NCBI GenBank assembly: GCA_965195345.1
Contig: OZ239628.1
Location: 960,001-1,024,000 of the forward strand
Source: an uncultured Thiomicrospira sp.
Lineage (GTDB): Bacteria > Pseudomonadota > Gammaproteobacteria > CAKMZV01
Direction of reading: 5' to 3'
DNA: 64,000 nucleotides
Shown: in pieces, positions 49,729 through 64,000 of the stretch
Layout: the number at the start of each line of letters is the position of its first letter
How positions within the stretch are numbered: position 1 is the first letter of the stretch
Made by a program: the position numbers and the translations under genes
The notes under the pieces: generated by a model
The model's input: the letters and a program-made list of their open reading frames with translations, nothing else
Database searches by the model: none
Told to the model about the DNA's origin: nothing

Positions 49729-50934
49729 TCATTTGTTTTGAGGTCCAATGAGTACTGCCATGTACTTTTGAACTAAATCTTTTTGTTTTTCTATATGTTT
49801 TAATGCTTGTTCTTGCATTTTTTTACGCAATGCATCATTTTTTAACAAATGCAAGACTTTCTCTATTGCTTCGCAATAATCTGCACATTGAATGAGAGCA
49901 TTCTCTTCTACTAATGACCGAGCCTCGTCTATAAAATTGCTCATATGATTGCCACTGATGATAGCAGCTCCGCATGATGCGGGTTCTAATACATTATGCC
50001 CTCCCTTAGCAACAAATGAACCGCCCATGATAACAACCTCTGCATTTTGGAATAGAGGGGGTAAGAGACCTAATTTATTAATAATGTGCACGTTCGTATG
50101 TGAATCAACATGTACTCCCTGACTGATAGAGCAAGTCAGATTTAGCGCCTGCAAGTCTTTAATAATGGCTGCAGTACGTTCTGGATGACGTGGCGCAATA
50201 ATTAATTGCTCAGCGCGATTGCTACATAGCCATTTTTTGGCAAACTGGACTTCTTCATCCGCGTGGCTTGACGCAAGTAAAATAAAAGGACGATTTGAAG
50301 AGATTGAGTGCTTTTTCTGTTGAATATTTGAGTATTTTAAGTTGCCTAAAGCCTGACATTTATGTGCTTCTACTCCTAATTTTTGAAATTCAGTTAGATT
50401 GTTAAAATCTTTTGTCAACACTTTCTCTACCAATTTTAGACTTTGCCGATAATAGTCTTTTATCCAGTTAGGTGCTAACAATATCTTATTAGTAATTCGT
50501 GCATTGATGATCGTAATTGGAATTTTCTGATTCGCACATTGTTTAAAAAGCTGTGGCCAAATCTCTGTTTCAACGACCCATAAAAGGGAAGGGTTAGCTG
50601 CTTTGAGAAACCGCTTTATTGAACTAACCCAGTCAAAGGGCAAAGCACACACGGTAACATTGTTTGGTAAATTTTGAGCTACCTGATAACCAGAGGTCGT
50701 TCCTACAGTCAATATTACAGGCTTTTGTAAAAGTTTAATCAATCCTGTTACAGCATTGACCTCTCCAACAGAGGCGCAGTGAATCCAATATGTATTTTGA
50801 GGAAATAGGGGATAGCTGTAGCCCAGCCTTTGTAAAATGAACTTTAGCGATAGTCCACGCTTCCAATTTTCTTTAATGATTAAGATAACGAGAATAGGGC
50901 TGACAATGATTAGTAAAAGGCGATAAATTCCCAT
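49729..50934 (-). CDS. waaA: Kdo transferase
   Basis: WIHCASVGE, ETEIWP, APRHPER, GGHNVLEPA; likely start MGIY at 50934. Confidence 0.9.
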   Translation of the reverse strand: MGIYRLLLIIVSPILVILIIKENWKRGLSLKFILQRLGYSYPLFPQNTYWIHCASVGEVNAVTGLIKLLQKPVILTVGTTSGYQVAQNLPNNVTVCALPFDWVSSIKRFLKAANPSLLWVVETEIWPQLFKQCANQKIPITIINARITNKILLAPNWIKDYYRQSLKLVEKVLTKDFNNLTEFQKLGVEAHKCQALGNLKYSNIQQKKHSISSNRPFILLASSHADEEVQFAKKWLCSNRAEQLIIAPRHPERTAAIIKDLQALNLTCSISQGVHVDSHTNVHIINKLGLLPPLFQNAEVVIMGGSFVAKGGHNVLEPASCGAAIISGNHMSNFIDEARSLVEENALIQCADYCEAIEKVLHLLKNDALRKKMQEQALKHIEKQKDLVQKYMAVLIGPQNK

Positions 50935-50938
50935 TAAT

Positions 50939-51688
50939 TTATAATAAGGCTGGGCTTCTATTGAAGCAGTGATGAGCGATGTCCTCTGGGATGTTGATTT
51001 CTGGAGAATCATACAAACTTTCTATAACTTTTATTTTTCCACCGTACTCTAGTATTCGCAATTGTTCTGATTTTTCAGATAATTCAAGAGTTTTGGGTGC
51101 TCGATTAGCAAGACTTAATGCGAACCACTTACGAGAGGCATGAATACCAAGCTGTTTGAAATAAGTTGAGTTTGTTTTTTTATCACGATTGTATGGAATA
51201 ACGTTCCGCGAAAAATACATGGCATATCCATTTTTATCGCTAACCACTTTGTAGGTGTTTGAATTGTTAATTTCTTTTAAATCATTTATTCGATATGAGA
51301 GTGTGGCAGCTGCAAAATCCTCAGATGCATCGTTTTTGAAACAAGCAATAATTTGTTCGATACTTTGTGAATTAACAAAAGGTTGATTACCCGGTATGCT
51401 AACCAAAATACAATTATCTGGCAAAGCTGTTGCATTGGCAGCGTGAGCTACTTGATTAATTCCAGAAGTCAAGCTCATTGGAGTTAGGATGACTTTTCCG
51501 CCAAATCCTTCAATTCCTTCTGCTATCTGCGCATCATCGGTAGCCACATAAACTTCTTTGATGCCTTTTGCTTTTACACAACGAGAATAAAGTTGTTTAA
51601 TAATTTTTTTTTTATCTGTCAATGCTAAAGACTCGTTAGGAACGCACGATGATCTATAACGAGCAAGAATGATAGCAACAGCGGTCAT
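50939..51688 (-). CDS. kdsB: CMP-Kdo synthetase-like protein, divergent
   Basis: VATDD, KVV.D..G.A.YFSR..IP, EQLR.LE.G; several active-site residues altered. Confidence 0.7.
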   Translation of the reverse strand: MTAVAIILARYRSSCVPNESLALTDKKKIIKQLYSRCVKAKGIKEVYVATDDAQIAEGIEGFGGKVILTPMSLTSGINQVAHAANATALPDNCILVSIPGNQPFVNSQSIEQIIACFKNDASEDFAAATLSYRINDLKEINNSNTYKVVSDKNGYAMYFSRNVIPYNRDKKTNSTYFKQLGIHASRKWFALSLANRAPKTLELSEKSEQLRILEYGGKIKVIESLYDSPEINIPEDIAHHCFNRSPALL

Positions 51689-51964: not shown

Positions 51965-54280
51965 CTATACAGCTTCCTTGTATAAATGTTCCTGAAACTC
52001 TATGAACGTACGCCGTATATCTTGAAAGTTGCCCAGCTGCTGCTCTGCTGCGTGCGTGCTTCCATACTTTGCTATAAGCACGGTGCTTAGTTTTGTGTCA
52101 TCTAATTCGTCAACGCCAACCTCAACATAATTACGCAGCACATAACTGACAAACGCACGTTGCTGATCATTCAGCAGCGTGTATATATTATCTTCGTTTG
52201 TTTTCACACGTGCAGCACGTTTGACTGTTTCTTTGGCGTATGCAACGTATTGCAGCACATCGAATAAATCGCTGTCTTCCGCGTTTATGAGTTCCTGCAA
52301 CTTGAGCAAATCATCTTTATGGCAACCTTCTTTTTCCAAGTTATTCATTAAGTCTCTGCGAGTGAGTGGATTTGCCCAAATTTCTCGTAGTTTTTCTTCA
52401 CTACCAAATAAGCTTGGCAACTGCAGCGTATCAAACAGTTTTTGTAAAAACTCTTCAGCGCTTATGGGTTTTCCATCAACATAAAAGTAAGTGGAAGTCA
52501 TACTTTGCAGTTCGCGCACTTTGCCGTCGGCAAGACGTATTTTTAGCTTCTCAGGTTTGTCGCCATCGCCTCCGCCTTTACCTCCGTCCCCGCCATCTTC
52601 ACCAGCACCAGTGCCGCCAGTACTACCACGACCAGTGTCTATCGGCTCTTGGGGTTCGCCATCCCACTCGTCGTCAAGGAACAAGTGATAAGCATTAACA
52701 AAATCTACGATTGTGAAATAATGTTTGCCTTCAAACAGCCGCGTACCGCGTCCAATAATCTGCTTAAACTCAATCATGCTGTTTACAGGACGCAGTAGGA
52801 CAATGTTGCGCACATTGCGTGCATCAACGCCTGTAGTGAGTTTTTGGCTGGTAGTCAGGATTGTTGGGATAGCTTTTTCGTTGTCTTGAAACTGCTTTAG
52901 ATAGGCTTCCCCAATCTTGCCGTCATCAGCCGTGACACGCACACAGTAGTCCACAGATGTGTTGCGTGCTTCCTGATTAATTAAATCTCGTATCATTGCA
53001 GCATGTGCTTGGTTAGCACAGAACACGATGGTTTTTTCGTTTTGATTTATTGCTGCAAGCATATCCTGCACTCGCTTGCGTTCTCGCGCTTTAATCTCAA
53101 TCTTCTTGTTGAAGTCTTTCTCTTCGTAGACATACCCTTCACGCACTTGACCTTCAATGACTTCGTCATCTGAGGTGTACACATATTCATCGATTGAGGT
53201 TTGAATACGCTTTACTTTGAATGGGGTTAAAAAACCGTCTTGAATGCCTTCTTTGAGGCTGTAGATATAAACAGGTTCGCCAAAATAGTCATACGTGTCC
53301 ACGTTGTCATCACGCTTTGGCGTAGCAGTTAAGCCGAGATGCACAGCACTGTCGAAGTGATTAAGTATATCTCTCCAACTGCTTTCGTCATTAGCGCCAC
53401 CTCTGTGGCACTCATCAATAATTACAAAGTCAAAAAAGTCTTTTTCGTATTCGCCAAAGTAAGGTTTGCCATCCGCGCCACTCATGAATGTTTGAAAGAT
53501 TGTGAAGAACACACTGCCGTTTTTTGGCACTTCGCCTTTTTTGCTTATCTCGCTGGGGTTTATTCGTATCAGTGCATCATCGCTAAATGCGCCAAAGTCC
53601 AAAAAGGCTTGATTGGCTAAGATATTTCTATCGGCGAGAAACAGTATTCTTGGCGTACGCTTGCCGTCACGCTGCTTGTTCCAGCGACTTTTAAACAGCT
53701 TCCATGCAATCTGAAACGCAATAAACGTTTTGCCTGTACCTGTTGCCAGTGTCAGTAGGGTACGTTTTTCGTCATTGGCAATGGCTGTCATTACGTTATT
53801 AACAGCCAGTTCCTGATAATAGCGTGCCTGCTTCGTTCCGTTTAAGTTTTCAAATGGAACAGCATTAAATTTCTCAAGCCATTCATTAGGCTCAGCAAAG
53901 GTTTTATTCCATAGTTCTTCAGGCGTTGGAAAAGCAGTTACTAATCCCTCTGTGCCTGTTTTGTGGCAGATTTGATAAATTTCATTGCCGTTGGCAGCGT
54001 AGCTGGTTTCGAGATGCAGTTTTTGTGCATACAGCTTTGCTTGTGCTACGCCTTCGCTAACTTCTAACTCGTTGTTCTTTGCTTCAACTACAGCCAGCTT
54101 GCGGTTTTTATAACTCAGTACATAGTCAGCACTCAGTATGCCTTGGCGAATACCGCCCGCTTTTATCTCGCCTGCATTGATCTTGTATTCACGCTGAACA
54201 CGTACGTCACCGCCAGTAATCCAGCCAGCGGCTTCAAGCTGTTTGTCGATAAATTCAGCACGTGTATCAGCTTCGTTCAT
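51965..54280 (-). CDS. hsdR: Type I restriction enzyme R subunit (EcoAI-like)
   Basis: NEADTR, ADY...VEAK, ATGTGKT, DECH, LTATP, QIIGRGTR. Confidence 0.93.
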   Translation of the reverse strand: MNEADTRAEFIDKQLEAAGWITGGDVRVQREYKINAGEIKAGGIRQGILSADYVLSYKNRKLAVVEAKNNELEVSEGVAQAKLYAQKLHLETSYAANGNEIYQICHKTGTEGLVTAFPTPEELWNKTFAEPNEWLEKFNAVPFENLNGTKQARYYQELAVNNVMTAIANDEKRTLLTLATGTGKTFIAFQIAWKLFKSRWNKQRDGKRTPRILFLADRNILANQAFLDFGAFSDDALIRINPSEISKKGEVPKNGSVFFTIFQTFMSGADGKPYFGEYEKDFFDFVIIDECHRGGANDESSWRDILNHFDSAVHLGLTATPKRDDNVDTYDYFGEPVYIYSLKEGIQDGFLTPFKVKRIQTSIDEYVYTSDDEVIEGQVREGYVYEEKDFNKKIEIKARERKRVQDMLAAINQNEKTIVFCANQAHAAMIRDLINQEARNTSVDYCVRVTADDGKIGEAYLKQFQDNEKAIPTILTTSQKLTTGVDARNVRNIVLLRPVNSMIEFKQIIGRGTRLFEGKHYFTIVDFVNAYHLFLDDEWDGEPQEPIDTGRGSTGGTGAGEDGGDGGKGGGDGDKPEKLKIRLADGKVRELQSMTSTYFYVDGKPISAEEFLQKLFDTLQLPSLFGSEEKLREIWANPLTRRDLMNNLEKEGCHKDDLLKLQELINAEDSDLFDVLQYVAYAKETVKRAARVKTNEDNIYTLLNDQQRAFVSYVLRNYVEVGVDELDDTKLSTVLIAKYGSTHAAEQQLGNFQDIRRTFIEFQEHLYKEAV

Positions 54281-55440
54281 ACAGCCTCCCTTTGCAGTTC
54301 TTGTGCGAGGATGGCGGATTTCAACTTCTTTAATTCGTTTGTTTTTTTTACTTCTACTAGCAAGGTTTTTTCAACGTGTATTTTTGCACTCACCACCATA
54401 TTAAGCAGTCTCTCAAGCATTTCTCCATCTGGGCACGGAATGGGTATTTCATTGAGCTTTTTTTGGTTAAGTTTTGGTTGTGCCATACCTGAGATATACT
54501 GCGATAGATTTGTAGCATTCAGATATAGCTCAACCCATTTTTGTAATTTGGAATTTTCAAATTTCAGCACATGAGCATGATTGTTTACCCAACATTTTCC
54601 GCTTACAGAAAAAGCTATCGGATACGCCCTCATAAGCAGGTTTGCACCATCTTCAGAAATAAGCAGTAAATCATCGTCAAAGATGTACTCCTCAACATAA
54701 TCTACAATTCCGCTAGCGCCATAATACGGCACGTTACCAACTACTCGTTTAGATTTTGTAATTGGAATTCGCTTTGCATCTAGATTTTCAGAGAGATGCG
54801 ATAGATTTTTGATTTCCCACCGATACAAATCATTATTTAGAATTTCACGCATTATGCCCGACGACAAATTAGTATAGTTTGAGATTTTATCGTCTGTAAT
54901 TTTTATCGTTTCATCAATCTCAGCAAACGCAGCATCCAGTTTGGCTACGATGCGTTGTTGTTCTGCGAGAGGGGGGAGTGGAACGACAATCTCTTTGTAC
55001 TGGGCAAGCTGAAGGTTTCGTATGCCTGTTGAGTGACGCTGCATAGGTTCTGTCTTTCCACTAAGATAAAGGAAGTGTAGAAAACGATGAAGAAACTGTG
55101 CATCAAGCTCACTTTCGTCAAATACCCTTAGTCGCGCTGTGAAGTTGCTTAGTGAGTATGGAATATCTGCCGATGCATTATGAATACAAACTCTCCCAAC
55201 TGGCGTTTTATCACCACCACCAGACTTTTCTAAGATGATGTCATGCTTTTTAACTTCTCTCTTTTCTAGTTGCTTTGCTTCAACATCAAGTTCAACAACC
55301 TCTGAGTAGTCAAGTTGTCCAGAAGAAGTAAAGTTAGTATTACGTAATACTAACGCTTTAACGAATGGTTCCTTCTTTCCTTTCCATAGTCCGCTTTGAA
55401 TGCCACATAACTCCGATAGCTTTTTTATCTTCCACATCAC
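54277..55440 (-). CDS. hsdS: Type I R-M specificity subunit
   Basis: Two TRDs separated by PLPPLAEQQRIVAKLD; C-terminal LKSAIL. Confidence 0.92.
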   Translation of the reverse strand: MMWKIKKLSELCGIQSGLWKGKKEPFVKALVLRNTNFTSSGQLDYSEVVELDVEAKQLEKREVKKHDIILEKSGGGDKTPVGRVCIHNASADIPYSLSNFTARLRVFDESELDAQFLHRFLHFLYLSGKTEPMQRHSTGIRNLQLAQYKEIVVPLPPLAEQQRIVAKLDAAFAEIDETIKITDDKISNYTNLSSGIMREILNNDLYRWEIKNLSHLSENLDAKRIPITKSKRVVGNVPYYGASGIVDYVEEYIFDDDLLLISEDGANLLMRAYPIAFSVSGKCWVNNHAHVLKFENSKLQKWVELYLNATNLSQYISGMAQPKLNQKKLNEIPIPCPDGEMLERLLNMVVSAKIHVEKTLLVEVKKTNELKKLKSAILAQELQREAV

Positions 55441-56888
55441 AGCAACTCCTTGATTGCCTGCAATGCTTGTGCTGCTTGCACATCTAACTGTTCAATCTCT
55501 GCGATGATTTCTTGCGGTGTACGATTATCTACTTCTTCAACGGTGTTTGGATTGTTAACAGTTAAATCCCATGTATCTTTGTTTACCGTTGCTCCATCGA
55601 CCAACCAGCTGTTGTCACTCAGCTGTTGCGTTTTAGCCATCTCAACAAATTCAGCTAAATCCTTTTCATTGAGCGGGTTTGTCTTACCCATATTTCTGCC
55701 AACATTGAGTTGGTAGTACCAAATGTTCTCAGTGGGTTTGCCCTTTTCGAAAAACAAGACAACCGTTTTAACGCCTGTGCCAATAAATGCTCCACTGGGT
55801 AAGTCCAGCACAGCAAACAGATTGCATTCTTCGAGCAACTGCCTACGCAGTGCAACGCTGGCATTGTCTGTATTGCTGAGAAAGGTGTTTTTAATCACAA
55901 TGCCACAGCGTCCGTTTACTTTGAGCATCTTTATAAAATGCTGCAGGAACAGATACGCTGTTTCGCTGGTGGCTACTGGGAAGTTTTGCTGTACTTCTGC
56001 ACGCTCTTTTCCGCCGAACGGGGGATTAGCGAGCACAACATCCACTCTATCTTTTTGCTGTATGTCAGCAATGTTTTCGCCAAGCGTATTTGTGTGCACA
56101 ATGTTGGGCGCTTCAATGCCATGCAGTATCATGTTCATTATGCCAATCACGTAGGCTAATGACTTTTTCTCTTTGCCATACAAGGTATGTGATTGCAGCT
56201 GCTCATACTTGCGAGCACTAAGTTCCTTGCTGCGCATGTGAGAGTACGCTTCACATAAAAATCCTGCACTACCCACAGCACCGTCATAAACAGTTTCACC
56301 GATAACTGGATTAATAACTTTGACAATGCTTTTGATGAGTGGACGAGGCGTGTAATATTCGCCGCCATTCCTGCCAGCATTCCCCATGTTCTTGATTTTG
56401 TCTTCGTACAAGCTGCTAAGCTCATGCTTGTCGTCATTGCTGAGAAAGCTGAGTTCGTCTATTTTGTTGATTACTTCACGCAGGGCATAGCCACTTTGCA
56501 ACTTGTTGCTTATCTCGCTGAAGATTTCGCCGATTTTGTATTCCAGCGTATTGGCACTGTCTGCGGATATTTTGAATTGCTTGAGATAGGGAAACAATTT
56601 GAAGTTAACAAACTCGCGTAAATCATCGCCTGTGAGTGCTGCGTTGTGATCCAGCTTGCCATCGCTGGATTTGGGTGTTGCCCAAGTTTTCCAGCTAAAT
56701 TCATCACTCAGTATCGAGTTGTAAACTTCACCATTGAGCGATGCGGAGTTGGCTTTTTCAGTCTCGTAGTCATCCAAGTACTTTAGAAACAGTATCCAGC
56801 TTGTCTGCTCGATGTAGTCAAGCTCACTGCTGCAACCAGCGTCTTTCCATAAAGTATCATCAATATTCTTAAACGCTGCTTCGTACAT
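55437..56888 (-). CDS. hsdM: Type I R-M N6-adenine methyltransferase
   Basis: GEYYTPR, YDGAVGSAGFL, NPPF. Confidence 0.95.
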   Translation of the reverse strand: MYEAAFKNIDDTLWKDAGCSSELDYIEQTSWILFLKYLDDYETEKANSASLNGEVYNSILSDEFSWKTWATPKSSDGKLDHNAALTGDDLREFVNFKLFPYLKQFKISADSANTLEYKIGEIFSEISNKLQSGYALREVINKIDELSFLSNDDKHELSSLYEDKIKNMGNAGRNGGEYYTPRPLIKSIVKVINPVIGETVYDGAVGSAGFLCEAYSHMRSKELSARKYEQLQSHTLYGKEKKSLAYVIGIMNMILHGIEAPNIVHTNTLGENIADIQQKDRVDVVLANPPFGGKERAEVQQNFPVATSETAYLFLQHFIKMLKVNGRCGIVIKNTFLSNTDNASVALRRQLLEECNLFAVLDLPSGAFIGTGVKTVVLFFEKGKPTENIWYYQLNVGRNMGKTNPLNEKDLAEFVEMAKTQQLSDNSWLVDGATVNKDTWDLTVNNPNTVEEVDNRTPQEIIAEIEQLDVQAAQALQAIKELL

Positions 56889-56906
56889 TGAGTGCTTATC
56901 CTTAAA

Positions 56907-57053
56907 TTACTTTGGTTTTCTGCCTTCGGCAATTGAGCCTTTTAGCATCCCAGCAGTAAAGCCGAACTCTTTACAAAGTCGTTTCACTTCTTTCAATGCA
57001 TTAGCACGTTTGTTTTTCTGTGCTTTAACCATCTGCTGCTGAATTGCTTTCAT
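56907..57053 (-). CDS. Small protein resembling an H-NS N-terminal oligomerisation domain
   Basis: Below the ORF-track cutoff: MKAIQQQMVKAQKNKRANALKEVKRLCKEFGFTAGMLKGSIAEGRKPK, ending 18 nt upstream of hsdM. Confidence 0.55.
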   Translation of the reverse strand: MKAIQQQMVKAQKNKRANALKEVKRLCKEFGFTAGMLKGSIAEGRKPK

Positions 57054-57508
57054 TTCAGCTTTCAACTTGTCATGTGATTTTATCAGACACTTACTTTGAA
57101 TAAGTGTCTGTGACAGCGTATAGGTTTGTTATTAGGTTGAAAAGCACGTTTTCTACGTCTAATGTTATGTGTTGTAATTAGGCAAAAGTATTTCAGCGTC
57201 TCACTATGCCAGTCCGTTTACTTGTCAATCACATAGCCATACGGCTACAAACCGTACAGTTTTGACGGTTTTAACTATACAGTAACTTACTGGTTTTTTG
57301 ATTCGGTAACGGTGGTTGTGGACGGATAGGTGTAAAGTCAGTTCGTTCTGTGTCTTTTTTTAAGTGCCAAGTTTGCTCGCAGAGTTACTATGATTTCCAG
57401 TAGTCACACGTTTGTGCAACATTCTGTGTAACTGCATGAGAAAACCTCAATTAAAGCAACGATTGATTTTTTTATGTAAAAGTAATGTGCAAGTTAAATA
57501 TAGTTTAA

Positions 57509-57700
57509 AATCAATGACTTAAAATATAAAAGCTATTCCCACTCAATGAGTAATACTCTCTGAAACCCTTTATTTAAAGGGGTTTTAAAAAAGTTTGTAT
57601 TAACTTTGTATAAGAGAGGTTTCATTTTCTACCCATTGTTGTATGACTATACCTATAACCTAGGTGTTTCATACAAAGTTTGTATCAGAAAATTATACAT
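57509..57700. repeat. att-like site copy 1: IHF box, duplicated guaA 3' end, palindrome, arm repeats
   Basis: AATCAATGACTTA (57509-57521, matches WATCAANNNNTTR); CTATTCCCACTCAAT = I-E-W-E-stop of guaA; aaagtttgtattaactttgtat; tttcatacaaagtt. Confidence 0.85.
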
Positions 57701-57834
57701 GTTTTGTTCACTGACTCACTGTGTCAGAAGATAAAATACTGCCCTGGTCTAACTGGTTTTTCTTGGTTGATTCAATGAAGATTAAAGTGAAAAAGGAGAC
57801 TCAATCCTACCTTATCAATTGCGAACCGATTGTT

Positions 57835-58035
57835 TCAGCAACAAGCATCTCCCTCTTGAATAGGCGGACAAACAACATCTCCAAAAGAACAAAAAATACA
57901 GCAATCACCCTTATTAGGTTTTAAAAGTGCTTTACAATTTGCACATTCATAAAAAAATTGACAACTATTAGTCGGCATTGTTTCAGTTTTTTTATATCCA
58001 CAATTAGGGCAAGTTATAGTTGAGTTTAATTCCAT
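57835..58035 (-). CDS. GDCCVxC-domain small Cys-rich metal-binding protein
   Basis: ITCPNCG...MPT.SC..FYEC..C...LKP..GDCCIFCS.G...CPP. Confidence 0.85.
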   Translation of the reverse strand: MELNSTITCPNCGYKKTETMPTNSCQFFYECANCKALLKPNKGDCCIFCSFGDVVCPPIQEGDACC

Positions 58036-58038
58036 TTA

Positions 58039-58419
58039 TCAACACCTTTTAGATATGGGTTTTATCACATCAATTATTGCCACAAAAGACATCAACAAAA
58101 GTGCCACATAAAAAATCGTCCTACTAAATGCAAATTCCCAAAAGACATAGAGAACTAAAAAAATCACAAACGGACTTGTAGTATTTAAAAAACCACGCAG
58201 ATGGTTTTTATGATTAAACCACGAATATAAATTTGAAACCAAGACTACTAAAGTAAAAAAAGGTAGCAGGTAGTTAATTGCAATACTCTCAAAAACAGAC
58301 AGAAATCCCAACCCCATAACAGAAGCAAGTGAAATGAATGCAGGAAAACATGCGGGACAACTTAAAGCAGCAATCCAAATACCAACAGTTCCTATTTTAT
58401 CTGTATGAAATCTTTTCAT
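58039..58419 (-). CDS. merC: MerC-family mercury transporter-like protein
   Basis: DKIG..G.....CPACFPA......GLGFL with 4 TM segments. Confidence 0.75.
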   Translation of the reverse strand: MKRFHTDKIGTVGIWIAALSCPACFPAFISLASVMGLGFLSVFESIAINYLLPFFTLVVLVSNLYSWFNHKNHLRGFLNTTSPFVIFLVLYVFWEFAFSRTIFYVALLLMSFVAIIDVIKPISKRC

Positions 58420-58427
58420 TATTGCAC

Positions 58428-58590
58428 TCCCACTTAATGAGTTACCCTCTGAAACCCTTTATCTAAAGGGGTTTTAAAAAAGTTTGTATTAACTTTGTAT
58501 GAAACCATGTCCTTGAAACAGTTGTTATTACTGCATTTGTGCGATTTTAGTGTGTTTTCATACAAAGTTTGCATGACAGAATTATAACAT
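58428..58590. repeat. att-like site copy 2
   Basis: TCCCACTTAATGAG...ctctgaaaccctttatctaaaggggttttaaaaaagtttgtattaactttgtat is near-identical to about 57537-57611; perfect 14-bp inverted repeat at 58491-58504 / 58556-58569. Confidence 0.88.
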
Positions 58591-58695
58591 ACAATTATTT
58601 CCAAAAACCCCCTTATCAAAATCCAAACTCAATGAGATACTGAAAGAGTAGTTTCAAAAATCATTACATTTGTAGTGTCTTAAAAACTTAATTTT

Positions 58696-58703
58696 TATAA
58701 ATA
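58696..58703 (+). promoter_or_regulatory. TATAAATA, matches the T4-type late promoter consensus
   Basis: Exact octamer 5 nt before the ATG at 58709; could be chance in AT-rich DNA. Confidence 0.4.
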
Positions 58704-58708
58704 CTTTT

Positions 58709-59293
58709 ATGAACTTTTTAAAAGAGAATTTTCAGTCTTCTAATGAACTTGTTAAACAAGTCATGATGCAAGATATACAACGAAGAAGTTATCAAAGATT
58801 TCTAAAGACATTCAAAACTGACAATATGTTATTCCTCGTATTGCACTTGAATAATTACCTGTCTAAAGAACAAAATCCATTTGAGATACAGAAGTCGTTG
58901 AAGAGATTTTTCAGAAGAGTTGATAACAAAGTGTTCAGTAGTAAATCAAACAAACGACTTCAAAGATATGTTGTTATTGAGAACTTAAAGAAACAGAAAC
59001 ATCAGAAAAGACTTCACTCTTCTAGAGTATCTAACAGAACTCATGTTCAGATTGCGATTGATGTTCCTAGACATCTCACAAAGAGTAAGTTGAGAGATAT
59101 CATTCGTAGTTCTTTAGATAATCAGATATGCAATCTATCTCATGTTGATGTTGTTGATAGATACGATGAACTGATTGATTACAACACGAAAGATATGTAT
59201 TCAATCAAACCAACAGATACAGATATAACATTTGATGAAGTGAACTCATACAGAGTAAAGAAGAGAGTTCATGAACATCGTGAAGTGCATTAA
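58709..59293 (+). CDS. Putative HUH-superfamily rolling-circle initiator-like protein
   Basis: Motif order FLVLHL (I), THVQIAI (II, HUQ variant), YNTK (III, YxxK); no Gly or Trp. Confidence 0.55.
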   Translation: MNFLKENFQSSNELVKQVMMQDIQRRSYQRFLKTFKTDNMLFLVLHLNNYLSKEQNPFEIQKSLKRFFRRVDNKVFSSKSNKRLQRYVVIENLKKQKHQKRLHSSRVSNRTHVQIAIDVPRHLTKSKLRDIIRSSLDNQICNLSHVDVVDRYDELIDYNTKDMYSIKPTDTDITFDEVNSYRVKKRVHEHREVH

Positions 59294-59340
59294 CTTGCCG
59301 AGAATCAGTCTTTACTGACTCTCAAAATGTTTATTTCGTT

Positions 59341-59577
59341 ATGAAGTGCATTGAGTTGCATTGTGATTTTTATTGTCTGAATAATGAGAAAAGAGATATG
59401 ACAATTGCAAAGAGTAATAGATGCAGAGAACTGTTAAAAGAACTAGAACAGATTCAATACGACTATCTAGAAACCAACATGATTAGACTGACAGAAACAG
59501 AGAAACGATTCTACAAACATCGTAAGAAGATTATTCTCAAATATGTGTCAGATTATCTAGATACACAAAACGCATAA
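59341..59577 (+). CDS. Hypothetical protein (start may be ATG 59398)
   Basis: ORF in the element's + strand gene block. Confidence 0.55.
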   Translation: MKCIELHCDFYCLNNEKRDMTIAKSNRCRELLKELEQIQYDYLETNMIRLTETEKRFYKHRKKIILKYVSDYLDTQNA

Positions 59578-59600
59578 ATAGTAGTTAGAGATTAAATTAA

Positions 59601-59993
59601 ATGAAGACTTCATCAAAAATCATTCTAGAGAACATTAGAATTGATAAACAATTAAGAATAAATGTTGCACTCGTTAACGATAAACAATTAAACACATTAT
59701 TTAATGATATAAATCATCACATTGATGAATTAAATAATACCAAGATGAATGAACACGAGAAAATATTCACTCTTGAAACATTGATAAAAGATTTAATTGA
59801 ATTTAATAACAAAACTTTCTTCAAACTTTATACAACTACTAATGAAAAAGTGCGAGAAACAGAACGAGTAAAGAGATTAAAGTCATTTTTAGACATCAGA
59901 AAAGATGTTGAAGATGAATTACCTGTTCCTGATGATGATGAAGATGATGTTCCTTCAATTCCACCTGCATTAAAGAGAAAATTAAACCTATGA
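59601..59993 (+). CDS. Hypothetical helical protein with an acidic C-terminal tail
   Basis: 130 aa, ending DDDEDDVPSIPPALKRKLNL; stop overlaps the next ATG (ATGA). Confidence 0.65.
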   Translation: MKTSSKIILENIRIDKQLRINVALVNDKQLNTLFNDINHHIDELNNTKMNEHEKIFTLETLIKDLIEFNNKTFFKLYTTTNEKVRETERVKRLKSFLDIRKDVEDELPVPDDDEDDVPSIPPALKRKLNL

Positions 59994-60193
59994 AACCAAA
60001 AAGATATTCACAAAATCCTATTCAAGTCAGAATACACAATGTTCAAGAAGACACTTTGAATAAAATAATGAACGATACTGAATATTGCACTAGAAAGAAT
60101 ATTATTTCTAAAAGTGATGCAGTTCGTTCTGCATTATTTTCATTATGTAAAGACTACGAACAAGAGAAATATAATCAGTTAATACAGTCATAA
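59990..60193 (+). CDS. Putative ribbon-helix-helix DNA-binding protein
   Basis: IQVRI strand...L..I...SKSDAVRSAL helix pattern (CopG/Arc-like). Confidence 0.5.
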   Translation: MKPKRYSQNPIQVRIHNVQEDTLNKIMNDTEYCTRKNIISKSDAVRSALFSLCKDYEQEKYNQLIQS

Positions 60194-60275
60194 CTCATTA
60201 CATTAAAACCACTTAATATAGTCGTGTGCGTTCGGGGAAAAGTCAGTCTTAAACAGTTAATACATTGAGAGTCAA

Positions 60276-60404
60276 ATGAACGAAAAAGTCATTCAGAAAC
60301 AACTAGAGTCGTTTGAGAAACAGTTTGATAAGACTGTTCAAGAGTTCAAAAGTCTTCTAAAAGTATTCAAACAAGAATTAAAGAACTCACAAAAGAACAG
60401 ATAG
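60276..60404 (+). CDS. Small coiled-coil-like ORF, 42 aa
   Basis: Manual translation MNEKVIQKQLESFEKQFDKTVQEFKSLLKVFKQELKNSQKNR. Confidence 0.45.
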   Translation: MNEKVIQKQLESFEKQFDKTVQEFKSLLKVFKQELKNSQKNR

Positions 60405-60496
60405 AGTTGTAAATCAAACTAAAGTCTAATTTACACTTTTTCTAGAAAGTGAAATGTTGATTTTAATAGTGTTTCAGAGTGTCTATTTGCAGAAAA

Positions 60497-61084
60497 TTAG
60501 ATAGACATTGATTTACATTGTTGTGCGACTCTCGTATGACTGATTCCTACTCTATCTGCAATCTTTCTATAAGATTTACCTTTCTTTCTTAACTCCATGA
60601 TTTGATATTCAATATCTTCATCAACAACATCTTTTCTTCCAAATTTAACACCATCTTTCAATGCTCTTTTGATTCCGATTATCTGTCTTTCTCTTCTCAT
60701 GTTGTTTTCTAACTCTGCAAAGATTCCAACCATATAGAAGAAACTACTTCCCATAGTTGTAGATGTATCAATTCCTTGTTTGTAAGAATAGATATCAATG
60801 TCTAAATCTTTGAGTTGTGATAGAACAGACACAAGATGTTTCATGTTTCTTCCTAATCTATCTATTGACCAAACGACTAACTTATCAAATTTTTTTCTAG
60901 ATGCATCTTTCAACATTCTCTTTAATTCATCTCGTTCATTAACACCTTTAGTTCCACTTATCGTTTCATCATATTCTTCTACTACAATCCAATCATTTCG
61001 TTCACAGATTTCGTAGAGTTCTAGTCTTTGATTTTCAGTAGTCTGATGACTTGTTGAACATCTCATTAAAATTGCAACTCTCAT
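60497..61084 (-). CDS. Small serine recombinase (resolvase/invertase) with C-terminal HTH
   Basis: MRCST..Q....Q, SG, DRLGR, FAELE, ERQ..G, GKSYRKIA..VG. Confidence 0.92.
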   Translation of the reverse strand: MRVAILMRCSTSHQTTENQRLELYEICERNDWIVVEEYDETISGTKGVNERDELKRMLKDASRKKFDKLVVWSIDRLGRNMKHLVSVLSQLKDLDIDIYSYKQGIDTSTTMGSSFFYMVGIFAELENNMRRERQIIGIKRALKDGVKFGRKDVVDEDIEYQIMELRKKGKSYRKIADRVGISHTRVAQQCKSMSI

Positions 61085-62376
61085 ATATCTTCTCCTTTCT
61101 CTTCAACTGTTCCTTCTCTTGTGATTGAAAACGATTTCAATGCCTGTGTTCTCATAGACTCTTCTTTGTATTTCAGATAAGTGTCTTCAATGTGTTTGAT
61201 ACTTGTTCCTGCAAGTTTTGAAATATCAATGATATTCACACCACTCATAACACGCATTGTTATTCCAAAGTGTCTTAACGAATACCAAGTCAGATTTCTT
61301 TCCTCTTTCCACTCTTTAAGACTGATACCAATTCCAGTCATTAAATTTCTCCAATGTTTTGCATACTTCTGTGCAGAAATTGTTGCAGTTCCATTTACAG
61401 ATGCAAAAACTAAATCATCTTTACCTGTGAACTTCTGTCGTTTCTTCAATCTTTCAAAATACTCACCACCTCTACAGATGATTTTTCTATTTGATTTAAC
61501 TTTTGATGTTTCTGCACGAACATTGATATGTGCAAGAAGATGTTGTTTCTCATTTTCATCAAAGACTCGTTCAATCTTTTGCACATCTTTCCATTTCAAC
61601 TGTCTTAATTCCCCTACTCTCATGCATGAGTTAGATGAGATGAGAACATAATCTCTGATTATCATTCGTTCTAATTGTTCTGATTCATCAGTATTGTTCT
61701 TATCTGCAACATAACTTCTCATGAAACGAATCAGATTGTCGTATTCTTCAAGAGTGAATGTATCTCTTTTTCCAACATCATCTTTTCTGATACTGATTTT
61801 CTTAAAATCAAATTCATCAAAATGAGATATGTTCAAACGATAAAGAAACTTCATCATGTGATTGATTGTTGATTGTTCATTTCTGATTGTGATGTCAGTT
61901 GCATCTTTGAGTTTTTTTCTCAATCGTTGATATTCAAAGATTGAACTTCTATCAAGTTCTGCAACTTTCGTATTCTTACCAACGATTTTCATGAAGTGTT
62001 TTAACTGTGTGCGAATCGTAGTCCAACGACCTTGAACGATTGTATTTCCGATGTCTTTCTCTCTGTCTTCTAGATACAAATCAATTGCAGTTTCAACAGT
62101 CATTCCAAAGACTTTCTTTCCTTGTTTTACATTCGTAGATAACTCCATTCCTAACTCTCTTCCACGAATGAGTGCAGTTTCTAAATCTTTTGTTCTTAAT
62201 GACTTACGATAGTGTTTCTGTTCTTCCTTGATATACATTCTGAACTGAAAAACATCACCACTCTGTTTGACTCTAAACACTTGTGCGAGTCCATCTAGAA
62301 TGTCGTGTTGACTATGAAGATTATTACCTTTTGATACTCTTTTTTTTCTCATTTTTACAATGTTTCGTAATAACAA
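61081..62376 (-). CDS. Tyrosine recombinase/integrase (start may be ATG 62352)
   Basis: CMRVGE (R), SK (K), YSLRH, AGTS, DTY (Y); N-terminal RKSLRTKD arm-binding-like region; adjacent to the guaA 3' end. Confidence 0.9.
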   Translation of the reverse strand: MLLRNIVKMRKKRVSKGNNLHSQHDILDGLAQVFRVKQSGDVFQFRMYIKEEQKHYRKSLRTKDLETALIRGRELGMELSTNVKQGKKVFGMTVETAIDLYLEDREKDIGNTIVQGRWTTIRTQLKHFMKIVGKNTKVAELDRSSIFEYQRLRKKLKDATDITIRNEQSTINHMMKFLYRLNISHFDEFDFKKISIRKDDVGKRDTFTLEEYDNLIRFMRSYVADKNNTDESEQLERMIIRDYVLISSNSCMRVGELRQLKWKDVQKIERVFDENEKQHLLAHINVRAETSKVKSNRKIICRGGEYFERLKKRQKFTGKDDLVFASVNGTATISAQKYAKHWRNLMTGIGISLKEWKEERNLTWYSLRHFGITMRVMSGVNIIDISKLAGTSIKHIEDTYLKYKEESMRTQALKSFSITREGTVEEKGEDI

Positions 62377-62412
62377 CAGAAAGTTTGCACTTATCTTTGT
62401 ATCTACAGAATC

Positions 62413-62442
62413 ATTATACTATGAAAATACAGTCAAAATCAA
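62413..62442 (-). promoter_or_regulatory. Putative sigma70 promoter of the integrase, overlapped by an IHF-consensus site
   Basis: TTGATT-N18-TATAAT on the - strand; AATCAAAAGTTTG at 62437-62449 on the + strand. Confidence 0.5.
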
Positions 62443-62518
62443 AAGTTTGTATGAAGTTTGTATGAAAGAAATCCCTTAAAATCAACACTTTCAGATGATT
62501 TTGTTATTCCCACTCTAT
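62443..62518. repeat. guaA-proximal att site: tandem 11-bp arm repeats, IHF-like box and core
   Basis: AAGTTTGTATG x2 (62443-62464), AATCAACACTTTC (62480-62492), TATTCCCACTC (62505-62515). Confidence 0.8.
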
Positions 62519-64000
62519 TGTTGCTGGAGGCTTGCCTGAAATGTCGTAAACTACTCGTGCCACTTCGGGGACTTCATTGATAATCCTATTTGATACGTAT
62601 CCAAGTAAGTCATATGGTAAGTGCGCCCAAACAGCGGTCATAAAGTCAACAGTCGTAACTGCTCTCAAGGCAACAACGTAGCCAAAACGTCGAGCATCTC
62701 CAACAACACCTACGGATTTAATCGGCATGAAAACGGTAAATGCTTGTGATGTTTTTTCGTAATAATTTTTTTTATGTAATTCTTCAATAAAAATTGCGTC
62801 GCATCGTCTAAGAATGTCAGTATACTCTGCTGTTACTTCACCAATAATGCGCACGGCTAATCCCGGACCAGGGAAAGGATGGCGGTGCAATAAGTCTTTA
62901 TCTAGCCCTAAATGTGCGCCTATCTTGCGGATTTCATCTTTAAATAATTGGCGCAAAGGTTCGAGTAATTTCAAATTTAATTTATCGGGTAATCCGCCTA
63001 CGTTATGATGCGATTTGATGGTTTTTGCATTAGCGTTTGTATTGCCAGCAGATTCAATAACATCAGGATAAATAGTACCCTGAGCAAGGTAACTTATTTG
63101 TTTTTTTTCTTTTGCGTAGTCTTCAAAAACTTCGATGAAACTGCGTCCGATGATTTTACGTTTTTTTTCAGGATCTTCGACTCCTTTAAGCGCGCTGATG
63201 AATTTTTCTTCAGCATTGATGAAGTCCACTTTGATTCCTAGGAGATTGGCAAATAGTGCTTTAACTTGTTCTTCTTCGAACAAGCGGAGCAAACCATTGT
63301 TCACAAAGACACATTGCAGTCGATCACCGATGGCTTTGTGTAAAAGTAGCGCTGCAACTGAAGAATCTACGCCTCCAGATAACGCTAAGAGTACGTGTTC
63401 ATCAGCTTTAATTGTTTGTTGTAGATTGTTGATGATGTCCGCAGTAATATCGCTCGTTTTCCAATGGTTATCACAGCGGCAGATTTGCAGGGCAAAGCGT
63501 TCAAGAATGTTTTGCCCTTGAATAGTATGTGTAACCTCAGGATGAAACTGGATGGCGTACAGGTTTTTCTCTATATTGGCCATTCCTGCAAGAGGGCAGG
63601 AATCGGTCGAAGCCATGCAAACAAATCCAGGTGGCAATTTGGTTACTTGATCTCCGTGGCTCATCCAAACATCTAATAAGCCATGCCCGTGCTCATTGTG
63701 TCTATCTTCTATGTCTTTCAATAATGGAGTGTGTCCGCGCGCTCGAACTTCAGCGTGTCCGTATTCATGTTTAGCTGAGGATTTTACAGCGCCCCCAAGT
63801 GTTTGAGCCATTAACTGCATGCCGTAACAAATACCAAGTATAGGAATATTCAGTAGGAATAATCCTTGAGGAGCAGATAGTGATTGATCTCCATAAACCG
63901 ATTCGGGTCCTCCAGATAAAATAATCCCAGCAGGGTTGAAATCTTTTATTGAATCAATGGTGCAGTTGTGCGAATACACTTCGCAATAAACACCAATTTC
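62504..64000 (-). CDS. guaA: GMP synthase (start lies beyond the window end)
   Basis: [42 protein letters not shown]. Confidence 0.97.

Follow-up and report, generated by a model that had tools for sequence, protein, structure and literature searches.

A 4-kb element with an HUH-type Rep at the 3' end of guaA: a probable minimal gene shuttle of a type little known so far

Streptomyces AICEs such as pSAM2 combine a site-specific integrase with a rolling-circle Rep and replicate after excision; they carry an FtsK-like transfer protein and have sizes of 9-24 kb. GIsul2 and SGI1-type islands (15-43 kb) possess a tyrosine integrase, a resolvase and a replication gene, replicate in a theta-type, RepA-like manner, are mobilised by conjugative plasmids and bear resistance cargo. 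GIsul2 inserts at the 3' end of guaA, and in SGI1 the resolvase reportedly removes multimers. Rolling-circle plasmids of the pMV158 type encode an HUH Rep without helicase (RepB) and a small RHH regulator (CopG). Closest to the locus described here are the tycheposons and the VEIME marine satellites. Tycheposons are described as small marine elements without conjugation genes, with related elements reported in Gammaproteobacteria (Hackl et al., bioRxiv 10.1101/2020.12.28.424599). Many genes of VEIMEs (virion-encapsidated integrative mobile elements) lack homologues, and rolling-circle replication was regarded as compatible with their concatemers (Eppley et al. 2022, PMC9618062). Subgroups with both a tyrosine integrase and a serine recombinase were packaged as concatemers of monomers under 5 kb. 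The main text of that study presents no HUH Rep, and the terms guaA, GMP synthase and resolvase have no occurrence in it (PMC9618062).

Gene content and family

In the window, the whole analysed stretch of 64,000 nucleotides, seven ORFs lie within 58428-62518, five on the plus strand against a resolvase and an integrase on the minus strand. The plus-strand block starts with the gene of a 194-aa HUH-type Rep without helicase domain (58709-59293), followed by a small ORF listed with 78 aa (59341-59577), a 130-aa protein with an acidic C-terminal tail and no assigned function (59601-59993), a 67-aa RHH-like protein recognised by a pattern read by eye (59990-60193) and a 42-aa ORF with no assigned function (60276-60404). 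On the minus strand, a small serine recombinase of the resolvase/invertase type with a C-terminal HTH (60497-61084) overlaps the inward-facing, 431-aa tyrosine integrase (61081-62376) by 4 nt (61081-61084), the resolvase start lying over the integrase stop. Convergent layout and overlap had both been stated in the initial annotation and agree with the ORF list. guaA (62504-63979, minus strand) adjoins the right end. Across the element the GC content is 0.27-0.35, down from about 0.43. Family searches of the element ORFs and of 10 extra ORFs of larger relatives revealed no recognisable structural, packaging or transfer gene, in line with the earlier claim that structural and transfer genes are absent.

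Homologous elements, anticipated in the initial annotation, do exist: the family comprises 35 or more loci from marine metagenomes. Shared within it are Rep, the small resolvase, three small proteins and a motif of 23 nt that lies downstream of rep. The elements reside at guaA or glmS and use three unrelated integrases, the replication module being linked to the integrase type of the window, to another tyrosine integrase (29 % identical) or, beside glmS, to large serine recombinases. The taxon-labelled loci are SAR86 and Porticoccaceae records. L005, a SAR86 relative, shares the integrase, resolvase, RHH, 133-aa and 59-aa genes but lacks both rep and the motif; it resides at guaA, thus Rep is dispensable for residence at this site.

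Judged by conserved residues and predicted fold, the ORF 58709-59293 is a divergent, previously unannotated HUH (HUQ) endonuclease-type Rep, and the HUH identity first suspected for it is upheld. Conserved are E91, H112-x-Q114 and Y158-x-x-K161; F42, E91, H112, P120, H122, Y158 and K161 are invariant in an alignment of 23 Rep sequences. Position 114 is Q, but H in a sister subfamily (HVQ vs HVH/HCH). Relatives are rare, only 10 among 1.84 billion representative proteins, and Rep was absent from 60 relatives and 400 other genomes of the class that were searched. The profiles of the two Rep subfamilies match at 97.9 % (E 4.7e-13, hhalign), and all 10 sister-subfamily members matched PF23343 REP_ORF2-G2P with E<=0.01, among them P0009 with 28.4 bits at a cut-off of 27.8. 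The Rep of the window had no Pfam, NCBIfam or PHROG match of its own and no PDB match by sequence; the link to PF23343, as drawn from profiles, is transitive through the sister subfamily. AF2 models of mid confidence (pLDDT 64) present a beta-alpha-beta-beta-alpha-beta-alpha order that places H112 in a strand and Y158 in a helix. In a fold comparison with 48,161 PDB chains the sole match with Z>=8 was an archaeal virus protein (2x3g_A, Z 8.7, rmsd 3.3, 108 aligned). AAV5 Rep, MVM NS1, RepB, bocavirus NS1 and one RAYT scored Z 6.2-7.1, and many unrelated ferredoxin-like folds also reach Z 6-7 against this model; a Foldseek check gave E-values of 0.014 or worse.

The motif TGCATTGAGTTGCATTGTGAT (59347..59369, plus strand), detected by conservation across the family loci, contains two TGCATT 10 nt apart and lies inside a conserved block of roughly 45 nt, 55-60 nt past the rep stop. 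Exactly one copy on the rep strand was present in 30 of the 35 family loci, its 10-nt core in two further loci, while the other three contigs stop at rep; none of the four rep-less loci (L004-L007) has it. The motif is kept although the flanking genes show dS values of 0.4-1.5. Rep and motif have to be seen as conserved core rather than leftover, because they strictly co-occur across integrase swaps. The motif is a candidate double-strand origin, with the Rep binding and nick region, or a candidate operator; the latter may apply because no hairpin in its region was better than in shuffled sequences (z from -1.2 to +1.5).

The integrase matched phrog_1 integrase (E 8e-32) and PF00589 (E 9e-6, 26.0 bits, slightly below the cut-off of 27.1); the translation, inspected by eye, contains the motifs R (MRVGE), HxxR-like (LRHFGITMR) and Y (TYLKY), and relatives of 76 % and 68 % identity occur in Porticoccaceae and SAR86 records. 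The resolvase (PF00239, E 2.2e-38; phrog_125 DNA invertase, E 2.5e-49) has homologues in 15 of 35 family loci, the remaining loci being mainly short contigs, and its gene is translationally coupled to the integrase, whichever type is present. Homologues of the RHH-like protein, a candidate repressor with a CopG-like role, occur in 28 of 35 loci and in L005 (dN/dS 0.22-0.46); its family matches were all sub-threshold (aCcr1, E 0.065; phrog_876 repressor, E 0.03). The 130-aa protein is syntenic across the family (dN/dS 0.18-0.39) and had neither a family match nor a usable match in the Atlas. The 78-aa ORF from 59341 probably begins at the internal ATG 59398, giving a protein of about 59 aa (59398..59577, plus strand); other subfamilies begin this ORF at the equivalent Met (MT[IL].K.N), and dN/dS counted from this ATG is 0.04-0.08. 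Family-profile searches gave no match for the 42-aa ORF, which is kept at 60-100 % on the amino acid level in L008-L010, L012, L013 and L014, with a partial 52 % match in L036 (query residues 4-38).

Insertion at guaA and recent movement

The element is inserted site-specifically at the 3' end of guaA and recently moved between hosts. Its att core TATTCCCACTC consists of the last guaA codons and part of the stop; the reverse strand reads GAG TGG GAA TA, i.e. ...E W E and 2 nt of the stop. One exact copy forms the right boundary at the guaA stop (62505-62515), the other (57534-57544) lies in a guaA remnant (...I E W E stop) and is the left boundary of a composite of 57534-62515. The border between the 4-kb element and an adjoining MerC unit is a degenerate core, CACTCCCACTTAAT (58425..58438, 3 mismatches in 14). 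Of the two edges, first proposed at 58428 and 62518, the right one is exact and lies at 62515, the end of the core, beyond which other copies diverge; the left one coincides with the degenerate core only, the perfect second core being at 57534. Contig L010 begins 4 nt ahead of this outer core, and variable loose ends were present at 57533-57535 in all four metagenome runs. The recently moving unit is 57534-62515, MerC cassette included. The integrase-less 0.9-kb unit (cargo 57835..58419, minus strand) encodes a MerC-family transporter (58039-58419; NF033784 merC, E 3.6e-38, 130.7 bits vs a cut-off of 140) and a GDCCVxC protein (57835-58035; NF041374, E 5.6e-30). In each of the three further copies (L008, L009, L010) it travels with the element, and runs X3, X11 and X8 covered it at 6-15 times the depth of the 4-kb element; deeper contigs depart from the window sequence directly after 58438 (three runs). 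The guaA 3' site carries tandem arrays.

Copies of the arm-type repeat AAGTTTGTATG(A) were located by a repeat search. The integrase-proximal arm (62443..62465, plus strand) is a pair of exact tandem copies of AAGTTTGTATGA, candidate arm-type sites of the integrase; the integrase-distal arm (58443..58576, plus strand) comprises the hairpin-like GAAACCCTTTATCTAAAGGGGTTT, a tandem pair at 58480-58502 and an inverted pair at 58558-58576. An 11-bp arm repeat at both ends, as noticed initially, is hence present. Further copies are found at 57591-57613 and 57669-57687, and a 97 % identical, 58-nt duplicate of the distal arm at 57554-57611. The window contains 21 matches with up to 2 mismatches, which is not above shuffles (mean 13.6); 12 of the 21 sit in three patches adjoining cores. 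The repeat also flanks L005, where a tandem copy adjoins the integrase and the distal arm layout lies ahead of every distal core. L013 and L039, whose integrase is a different one, lack the proximal tandem repeat. A promoter-like site (62442-62413, minus strand) abuts the proximal arm; such sites are no commoner than in shuffles.

Copies of 98-100 % identity adjoin two other right-hand flanks, and identity halts exactly at the core, yielding three right flanks in total: the guaA of this host, another guaA gene and a guaA 3' remnant. Between the window and L008, L009 and L010, identity was 93-100 % for the 60 nt on the inner side of the core vs 41-67 % for the 75 nt beyond it. L009 was 99-100 % identical across 58297-62496, then 0.5-0.7 within guaA; per 100 nt, identity at 62497 fell from 0.99 over 0.74 to about 0.6. 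Runs X3, X11 and X8 had a flat element depth of 13.3, 34.4 and 3.0 and a depth of 0 on the host guaA flank. The end of identity at the core and the missing host guaA where the element is present support the insertion at the guaA 3' end that had been proposed. Between 59 and 100 % of the element's words were present in 20 runs from 11 studies. Because near-identical copies adjoin different guaA genes in the sea, the element looks like a 4-kb minimal gene shuttle of a little-known kind. The attP junction, suggested as a check for excision, was not recovered: no circle, tandem or empty-site joint was detected in three contig runs and about 3 % of one raw-read run, and contig runs drop rare forms, which limits this search. 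Plasmid and phage collections had no DNA similarity to the element, no virion copy was found, and the family was absent from IMG/VR by three probes.

Proposed propagation and alternatives

With a probability of roughly 60 %, we consider the locus a minimal mobile element that integrates and replicates itself in marine Gammaproteobacteria. The tyrosine integrase would recombine the 11-bp core, and since this core duplicates the last guaA codons, guaA would remain intact; the arm-type 11-mers on either side are likely integrase binding sites. After excision, the HUH/HUQ Rep may nick the DNA within or close to the 23-nt motif that closely follows its gene and thereby prime rolling-circle replication by the host polymerase and helicase, the host helicase being needed because Rep lacks such a domain. 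The RHH protein may exert a CopG-like control. The serine resolvase would cut multimers or concatemers to monomer circles, the substrates for insertion by the integrase. Spread would be passive or helper-borne, because a capsid, packaging or conjugation gene is absent: concatemers may be packaged by an infecting phage into its capsids, a route described for VEIMEs, or vesicles may serve, a vehicle proposed for tycheposons. Repeated insertion at one core could create tandem arrays in which integrase-less cargo such as the MerC/GDCCVxC unit persists. A search of the 99.7%-complete host genome for a resident helper recovered neither Zot nor a T4SS coupling protein, an HK97 capsid or Terminase_6N.

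The missing coupling protein speaks against the reading as an integrative mobilizable element, with the HUH protein as Rep-like relaxase, the motif as oriT and a borrowed conjugative mating pore. HUH enzymes include relaxases, Rep-type relaxases are reportedly known in IMEs, and the single conserved cis site next to rep as well as an integrase and small size without transfer genes suit such elements. No ORF matches a relaxase or mobilisation family, however, the nearest Pfam family, PF23343, is a replication family, and the labelled loci belong to SAR86 and Porticoccaceae, in the like of which conjugation is rare; we regard this origin as unlikely.

The same low probability is given to a non-replicating genomic island, moved by its integrase, in which the HUH protein is a leftover or has another role and the motif is an operator of the small-gene operon. 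The rep-less L005, which occupies guaA with an otherwise matching gene set, the motif without hairpin and the lack of a circular form in four runs agree with such an island. Against it stand the purifying selection on Rep (dN/dS 0.20-0.26), the catalytic-type residues invariant in 23 Rep sequences and the strict co-occurrence of Rep and motif across integrase-swapped elements. Other roles conceivable for the HUH protein of an island are regulation or strand transfer in recombination.

In Vibrio, circles of RS1 and TLC are packaged by helper filamentous phages, and known filamentous-phage satellites use XerCD/dif. A satellite, or else a stripped-down remnant, of an inovirus-like filamentous phage, with ssDNA circles made by Rep and packaged by a helper, is the least probable reading: the element is small, integrated and has a Rep without helicase, and the PF23343 description covers ORF2/G2P replication proteins, G2P being the inovirus initiator, but Zot is missing from the host genome, the element ORFs and the 10 extra ORFs of larger relatives gave no coat or assembly match, translations judged by eye included no small hydrophobic coat-like ORF, and an own integrase and resolvase are unlike the XerCD/dif satellites.

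Comparison with known systems

As a probable self-replicating integrative element, the locus resembles AICEs in the combination of integrase and Rep, but has no FtsK-like gene among its ORFs. It is like GIsul2 in the guaA 3' target and like both GIsul2 and SGI1-type islands in the set of integrase, resolvase and replication gene. The pairing of a helicase-less HUH Rep with an RHH protein is shared with pMV158-type plasmids (RepB fold match, Z 6.7), whereas these are free, lack an integrase and use another Rep family; their RHH gene precedes rep, while it ends the rep operon here.

Tycheposons, as described in the preprint, have an inward-facing site-specific integrase at one end and a small replication module at the other, as does the element, and a small serine recombinase is among their hallmark genes (bioRxiv 10.1101/2020.12.28.424599). 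In both, islands grow by repeated insertion at the same site and partial target repeats remain. Tycheposons target tRNA genes, the element the guaA 3' end and its relatives glmS; compared by description, their replication genes are of primase/helicase/polymerase type in contrast to the HUH rolling-circle-type Rep, and they are likened to PICIs of 10-20 kb, the element measuring 4.1 kb. VEIMEs are defined by concatemers inside virions; no virion copy of the element was found. Like the element, they are described as marine, integrative and without capsid genes, with monomers from under 5 kb, and six of their subgroups (48 elements) carry a tyrosine integrase together with a serine recombinase (PMC9618062). 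The initial annotation saw no fit to PICI, P4, PLE or inovirus layouts; the layouts of tycheposons and VEIMEs, as presented in this marine literature, do fit.

Gene content and attachment sites at guaA

The genome of the host is complete (1.92 Mb, 99.7% completeness). The element is located directly downstream of the stop codon of guaA (62504-63979, minus strand), and the GC content drops from about 0.43 to 0.27-0.35 across it. ORF calls together with Pfam and PHROGs searches confirmed the gene layout of the initial annotation, seven ORFs in two convergent blocks. An inward-facing tyrosine integrase (61081-62376, minus strand; phrog_1 E 8e-32, PF00589 26.0 bits at a cut-off of 27.1) is followed by a small serine recombinase (60497-61084, minus strand); the start of the recombinase gene and the stop of the integrase gene share 4 nt. 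The recombinase has an N-terminal catalytic domain with the serine nucleophile (PF00239 E 2.2e-38, residues 4-146) and a C-terminal HTH (HTH_23/HTH_7 at 149-187); it is a member of the resolvase/invertase class with a predicted role as resolvase. Five plus-strand ORFs of 194, 78, 130, 67 and 42 aa converge on this gene pair. The four shorter ones and their relatives had no match above threshold in Pfam, NCBIfam, PHROGs or PADLOC. We regarded a PADLOC match of the 130-aa ORF to CARF_HEPN (E 2.6e-4, 18 bits) as too weak to count, and the Atlas contained no usable match for this ORF. Rfam had no match to 57000-62700 at E<=0.1, a promoter/terminator scan found promoter-like sites rarer than in shuffled sequences and no terminator, and blastn in distant mode revealed no DNA match of the whole element to the plasmids of PLSDB or the phages of INPHARED.

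The last codons of guaA, GAG TGG GAA TA (plus strand TATTCCCACTC), form an 11-bp core that was present as exact copies at 62505-62515 and 57534-57544 and as a degenerate copy at 58425-58438. An 11-bp arm repeat, AAGTTTGTATG, stands as a tandem pair beside the integrase (62443-62465). The far-end arm (58480-58576) consists of the same repeat twice in tandem and an inverted pair, and this entire arm is duplicated at 57554-57687. With the duplicated arm and the repeated cores, the region is thus a tandem of two units: the 4.1-kb element (58428-62518) and an integrase-less unit of 0.9 kb (57534-58438) coding for a MerC-family transporter and a GDCCVxC protein. Features of a tyrosine recombinase are present in the catalytic domain of the integrase and in the duplicated core at the insert ends within the guaA 3' end. 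An exact arm 12-mer at 51009 (minus strand) lies inside the overlapping minus-strand ORFs 49729-51012 and 50939-51688 and was taken as a chance occurrence.

Similar arrangements were observed at other guaA loci. In a SAR86 locus (L005), the same arm repeats and core flank both sides of a 5.5-kb element, followed by three more small units, each ending in arm repeats and core. A stand-alone relative of 3.9 kb with two perfect cores is inserted at guaA in another locus (L013); there, the distal core is followed by sequence (L013 1-180) like the integrase-proximal end of a window-type element, which implies that two full elements would stand in tandem. In L010 (4988-5112), the composite of both units adjoins what is left of a guaA 3' end, in which a stop codon occurs 16 codons upstream; this implies a putative second place within an array. 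At the guaA 3' end, small units without an integrase form arrays both in the window (57534-58438) and in L005 (12667-16429). Each unit closes with a pair of 11-bp arm-type repeats, some 50 nt of spacer, in many cases a GAAACCC...GGGTTTC hairpin, and finally the core ATTGAGTGGGAATA; the five cores of L005 have a single orientation, and the arm repeats vary between units. Such arrays may represent a cassette system of the integron kind or may have arisen by decay of tandem insertions.

Two further features were observed in the neighbourhood. Between an upstream ORF of 249 aa (50939-51688) and the guaA-linked units, a block on the minus strand (51965-57065) looks like a type I restriction-modification operon, with names given from translations read by eye: hsdR-like (51965-54280), hsdS-like (54277-55440) and hsdM-like (55437-56888) ORFs, adjoined by a lysine-rich ORF of 52 aa (56907-57065). 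Its GC content of 0.38-0.47 is host-like. The ORF of 2848 aa at 40805-49351 (minus strand) is made up of numerous repeats, each about 100 aa long and almost identical to the others (…VLNVNDAPVA…FTDADGDTLTYSL…). With a signal-like N-terminus and a hydrophobic C-terminal stretch, it resembles a giant surface protein of the cadherin/RTX-like type.

The Rep protein and the motif downstream of its gene

The 194-aa ORF (58709-59293, plus strand) had been named a Rep-like HUH protein. Direct matches were absent in Pfam, NCBIfam, PHROGs and the PDB sequences; a PDB search with the family profile retrieved only the RNase P protein, which we attribute to chance in view of E values of 0.3-0.4. An exhaustive HMMER search of 1.84 billion representative proteins detected only ten relatives. 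An alignment of 23 Rep sequences contained the invariant residues E91, H112, P120, H122, Y158 and K161. Motif II reads H112-V-Q114 in all 21 sequences of the type present in the window, and HVH or HCH in the two sister-type sequences and in the ten members of the sister subfamily; it is located on strand 112-118 of the Rep model. Motif III, D-Y-N-T-K-D, lies on helix 152-160 with Y158 and K161 conserved in 23/23 sequences. By analogy, the invariant E91 (strand 86-91) may be the third metal ligand and the strand 40-47 with F42 and L/V-H-L-N may represent motif I.

The connection to a known family was obtained by the sister subfamily. One of its members (P0009), related to the window Rep at a phmmer E of 1.5e-7, matched PF23343 (REP_ORF2-G2P) with 28.4 bits against a gathering cut-off of 27.8, and all ten members matched this family at E<=0.01. 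Profile-profile comparison of the two Rep subfamilies yielded a probability of 97.9% (E 4.7e-13), and the alignment matched His motif to His motif and Tyr motif to Tyr motif.

Two AlphaFold models (pLDDT 64) have the order beta-alpha-beta-beta-alpha-beta-alpha; the His motif falls within a strand, the Tyr within a helix. For the second model, based on a deeper alignment, the top of 48,161 PDB chains was 2x3g_A (SIRV1 ORF119, which we take to be a Rep) with a Z of 8.7, the sole chain with Z>=8. Seven HUH nucleases were among the first 24 rows, and the AAV5 Rep nuclease domain, MVM NS1, bocavirus NS1, RepB of pMV158 and a RAYT had Z values of 6.2-7.1. The first model, superseded by the second, had Cascade/TniQ chains as best rows (Z 7.0-7.5) and 2x3g_A in sixth place (Z 6.3). 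Foldseek expectation values were 0.014 or worse and never reached 0.001. Many unrelated ferredoxin-like folds scored close to the HUH matches; with these neighbours and Foldseek values above 0.01, the fold comparison by itself is no more than suggestive of HUH. The initial HUH proposal is carried by motif and profile evidence, namely motifs II and III and the indirect link to PF23343 through the sister subfamily, and catalysis is predicted. The gene is under purifying selection (dN/dS 0.20-0.26), and the protein has no helicase domain.

A 23-nt motif, TG[CT]ATT[AG]AGTTGCA[TC]TGT[GA]AT, was found 55-60 nt past the rep stop (window 59347-59369) within a conserved block of about 45 nt. Thirty of the 35 metagenome loci of the family carry it as one copy on the rep strand, two more have kept a 10-nt core of it and the contigs of the remaining three end at rep; it is absent from four rep-less loci. 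The motif is nearly invariant while the neighbouring genes have a dS of 0.4-1.5. Its position overlaps with the start that was annotated for the 78-aa ORF. Since other subfamilies begin at an internal Met, the motif is probably intergenic and the real protein probably one of about 59 aa (59398-59577) rather than 78 aa; its dN/dS is 0.04-0.08. Upstream of rep, conservation was observed only between window and L013, and nothing was family-wide. We consider the 23-nt motif a candidate for the origin recognised by Rep. No hairpin beyond shuffled sequences was predicted for the motif region (three members, ssDNA, both strands; z -1.24 to +1.45), so the motif may possibly be an operator and not an origin.

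Members of the family and their distribution

A metagenome scan for Rep led to 35 loci, and thus to the homologous elements on which the initial proposal depended. Rep, motif and the proteins of about 59 aa, about 130 aa and of RHH type form a module that is syntenic across these loci, with an RHH homologue in 28 of them. The small resolvase is encoded in 15/35, wherever contigs are long enough, and its translation is always coupled to that of the integration gene. This gene is a tyrosine integrase of the window type in L008-L010, a tyrosine integrase 29% identical to it in L013 and L039, and a large serine recombinase of 500-577 aa in L012, L016-L019, L025, L030, L035 and L037. The type represented by L022, L025, L026 and L035 adjoins glmS. 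Beside glmS in L026 (3438-6411), two modules of Rep, small ORF and RHH protein are placed back to back, one with a Rep of the HUQ subfamily (4941-5441, plus strand), the other with one of the canonical HUH subfamily (4223-4696, minus strand). Ten further ORFs from larger relatives had no Pfam family match, and accessory searches gave nothing above threshold. The strongest caveat to the mechanism proposed below is the SAR86 locus: L005 (7313-12097) has the genes for integrase, resolvase, RHH protein, 133-aa and 59-aa proteins, together with four cargo ORFs, but where rep would stand it has some 500 nt of non-coding DNA, and it lacks the motif linked to rep.

The element is carried at 98-100% identity by three near-identical metagenome copies (L008, L009 and L010). 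Against L009, identity per 100 nt is 0.99-1.00 over 58297-62496, then drops to 0.74 and to about 0.5-0.7 inside guaA. Between the window, L008/L009 and L010, identity is 93-100% over the 60 nt inside the core and 41-67% over the 75 nt outside it; the right flank of L010 consists of the guaA 3' remnant only. Public sequencing runs (20 runs, 11 studies) contained 59-100% of the sampled words of the element. In three runs its depth was flat (13.3 in X3, 34.4 in X11, 3.0 in X8) and the depth of the host guaA flank was 0, so that in these samples other hosts carry the element. Depths of the MerC unit (here 57588-58438) were 198, 426 and 18.7, 6-15x those of the 4-kb element; its neighbours vary on both sides, with loose ends at 57533-57535 and 58438, and in the raw reads of a further run (X21) it was covered, the 4-kb element hardly. 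As the MerC unit stands beside the element in all three other copies, the unit moved most recently was probably 57534-62515. A MerC and GDCCVxC pair of about 80% amino acid identity is present 2.2 kb upstream of rep in a locus of another subfamily (L032). The only joint reported, a skip of 153 nt (59193->59347) in one X3 contig with a 23-nt side at 90% likeness, was taken to reflect a relative whose Rep ends earlier at the C-terminus and not a genuine deletion.

The excised form proposed in the initial annotation left no trace in the data sets searched. Joints across attP, or other joints of a circular form or an empty site, were seen in none of the four bulk metagenome runs (contigs of X3, X11 and X8, raw reads of X21). 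The family was not found in IMG/VR by integrase peptides, Rep alignment patterns or a 20-nt motif; IMG/VR picks contigs by viral hallmark genes, so this result says little on packaging. Rep was not found among 60 relatives or 400 other genomes of the class (species representatives), which does not indicate absence, since islands are often missing from MAGs. Two species of the same genus (L043-L048) have a guaA 65-66% identical to that of the window and no synteny downstream; their downstream genes map elsewhere in this genome with 50-73% amino acid identity. The genus is thus deep and offers no attB comparison with relatives.

Proposed life cycle and comparison with known systems

While the att structure is evident, the further mechanism is proposed as follows. 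The integrase would bind the arm 11-mers and exchange strands in the 11-bp core, which would restore the guaA reading frame upon insertion. After excision, the HUH Rep may nick near the conserved motif, and rolling-circle synthesis would proceed with host enzymes. CopG limits the expression of RepB; by analogy, the RHH protein may limit expression here. The resolvase, co-produced with the integrase, would cut multimers to unit circles. In searches of the host genome, at 99.7% completeness, Zot, the T4SS coupling protein, the HK97-type capsid and Terminase_6N were each not found. With no resident helper found, the vehicle would come from outside or be non-viral; with transfer genes lacking as well, the element would spread in the capsids of infecting phages as VEIME-type concatemers, or in vesicles. 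The element could in principle be an integrative mobilizable element whose HUH Rep serves as relaxase, but a relaxase family match was absent in any ORF (Pfam, PHROGs, NCBIfam) and a T4CP was not found in the genome.

We assign a probability of about 0.6 to the overall reading of an integrative, rolling-circle-replicating element that is served by a resolvase and spread by capsids or vesicles. The narrower claim, that the element is integrative and active and encodes an HUH Rep, is very probable. A more far-reaching version appears rather unlikely at present: these minimal integrative rolling-circle replicons would have paired recombinases as an adaptation to travel as concatemers, multimers of the element made by Rep would fill a foreign capsid or vesicle, and on arrival the co-translated resolvase would free unit circles of which the integrase inserts one at guaA, while the same integrases may service integrase-less cargo units that have kept only distal arm and core. 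If true, streamlined marine bacteria would have at the guaA 3' end an array of cassettes comparable to an integron.

Streamlined marine bacteria are mostly devoid of plasmids, prophages and conjugation, yet exchange genes freely. Tycheposons and VEIMEs have been proposed as gene shuttles, and many of their replication genes are unannotated. For one such family, an HUH Rep belonging to the ORF2/G2P superfamily can now be named as the predicted initiator, together with a candidate origin and a resolvase as conserved partner. At guaA or glmS, the family has exchanged its modules for integration, which comprise two lineages of tyrosine integrases as well as large serine recombinases, and one 5-kb unit was seen directly in sequence beside different guaA flanks. 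The proposal provides a testable mechanism for how element concatemers could arise and be resolved, and the Rep profile is available for finding the family in virome and vesicle data.

The initial annotation had recognised that the layout does not fit PICI, P4, PLE or inoviruses, and the family searches agree. The seven ORFs within 4.1 kb had no match in Pfam, PHROGs or NCBIfam to terS, capsid, Sid/Psu-like, primase-helicase or AlpA/Stl-type proteins of PICI, P4-like elements and PLE. Unlike in inovirus prophages, neither a Zot-type ATPase nor a coat protein was matched in the element, and Zot was not found in the genome. A published description of this Rep family or element was not found; published element lists may already hold members, and the main texts on tycheposons and VEIMEs, as far as accessible, do not name the HUH Rep family. 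Tycheposons, for which spread by vesicles was proposed, share the inward integrase at one end, here the guaA core side, and the rep gene at the far end (bioRxiv 10.1101/2020.12.28.424599). As described there, primase, helicase and polymerase are their hallmarks; no such family match was obtained for any ORF of the element (Pfam, PHROGs, NCBIfam), which has an HUH Rep as replication gene instead, a comparison made at the level of gene families. VEIMEs are defined by head-to-tail concatemers in virus particles, whereas the element is known here from its genes and from bulk runs. Subgroups of VEIMEs possess both recombinases and monomers under 5 kb (PMC9618062), and the element resembles them in its tyrosine integrase, its serine recombinase and a monomer of <5 kb. 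It differs from the compared systems by its very small size and, as far as the targets of tycheposons and VEIMEs are covered in these texts, by insertion into the 3' end of a protein gene, guaA or glmS.
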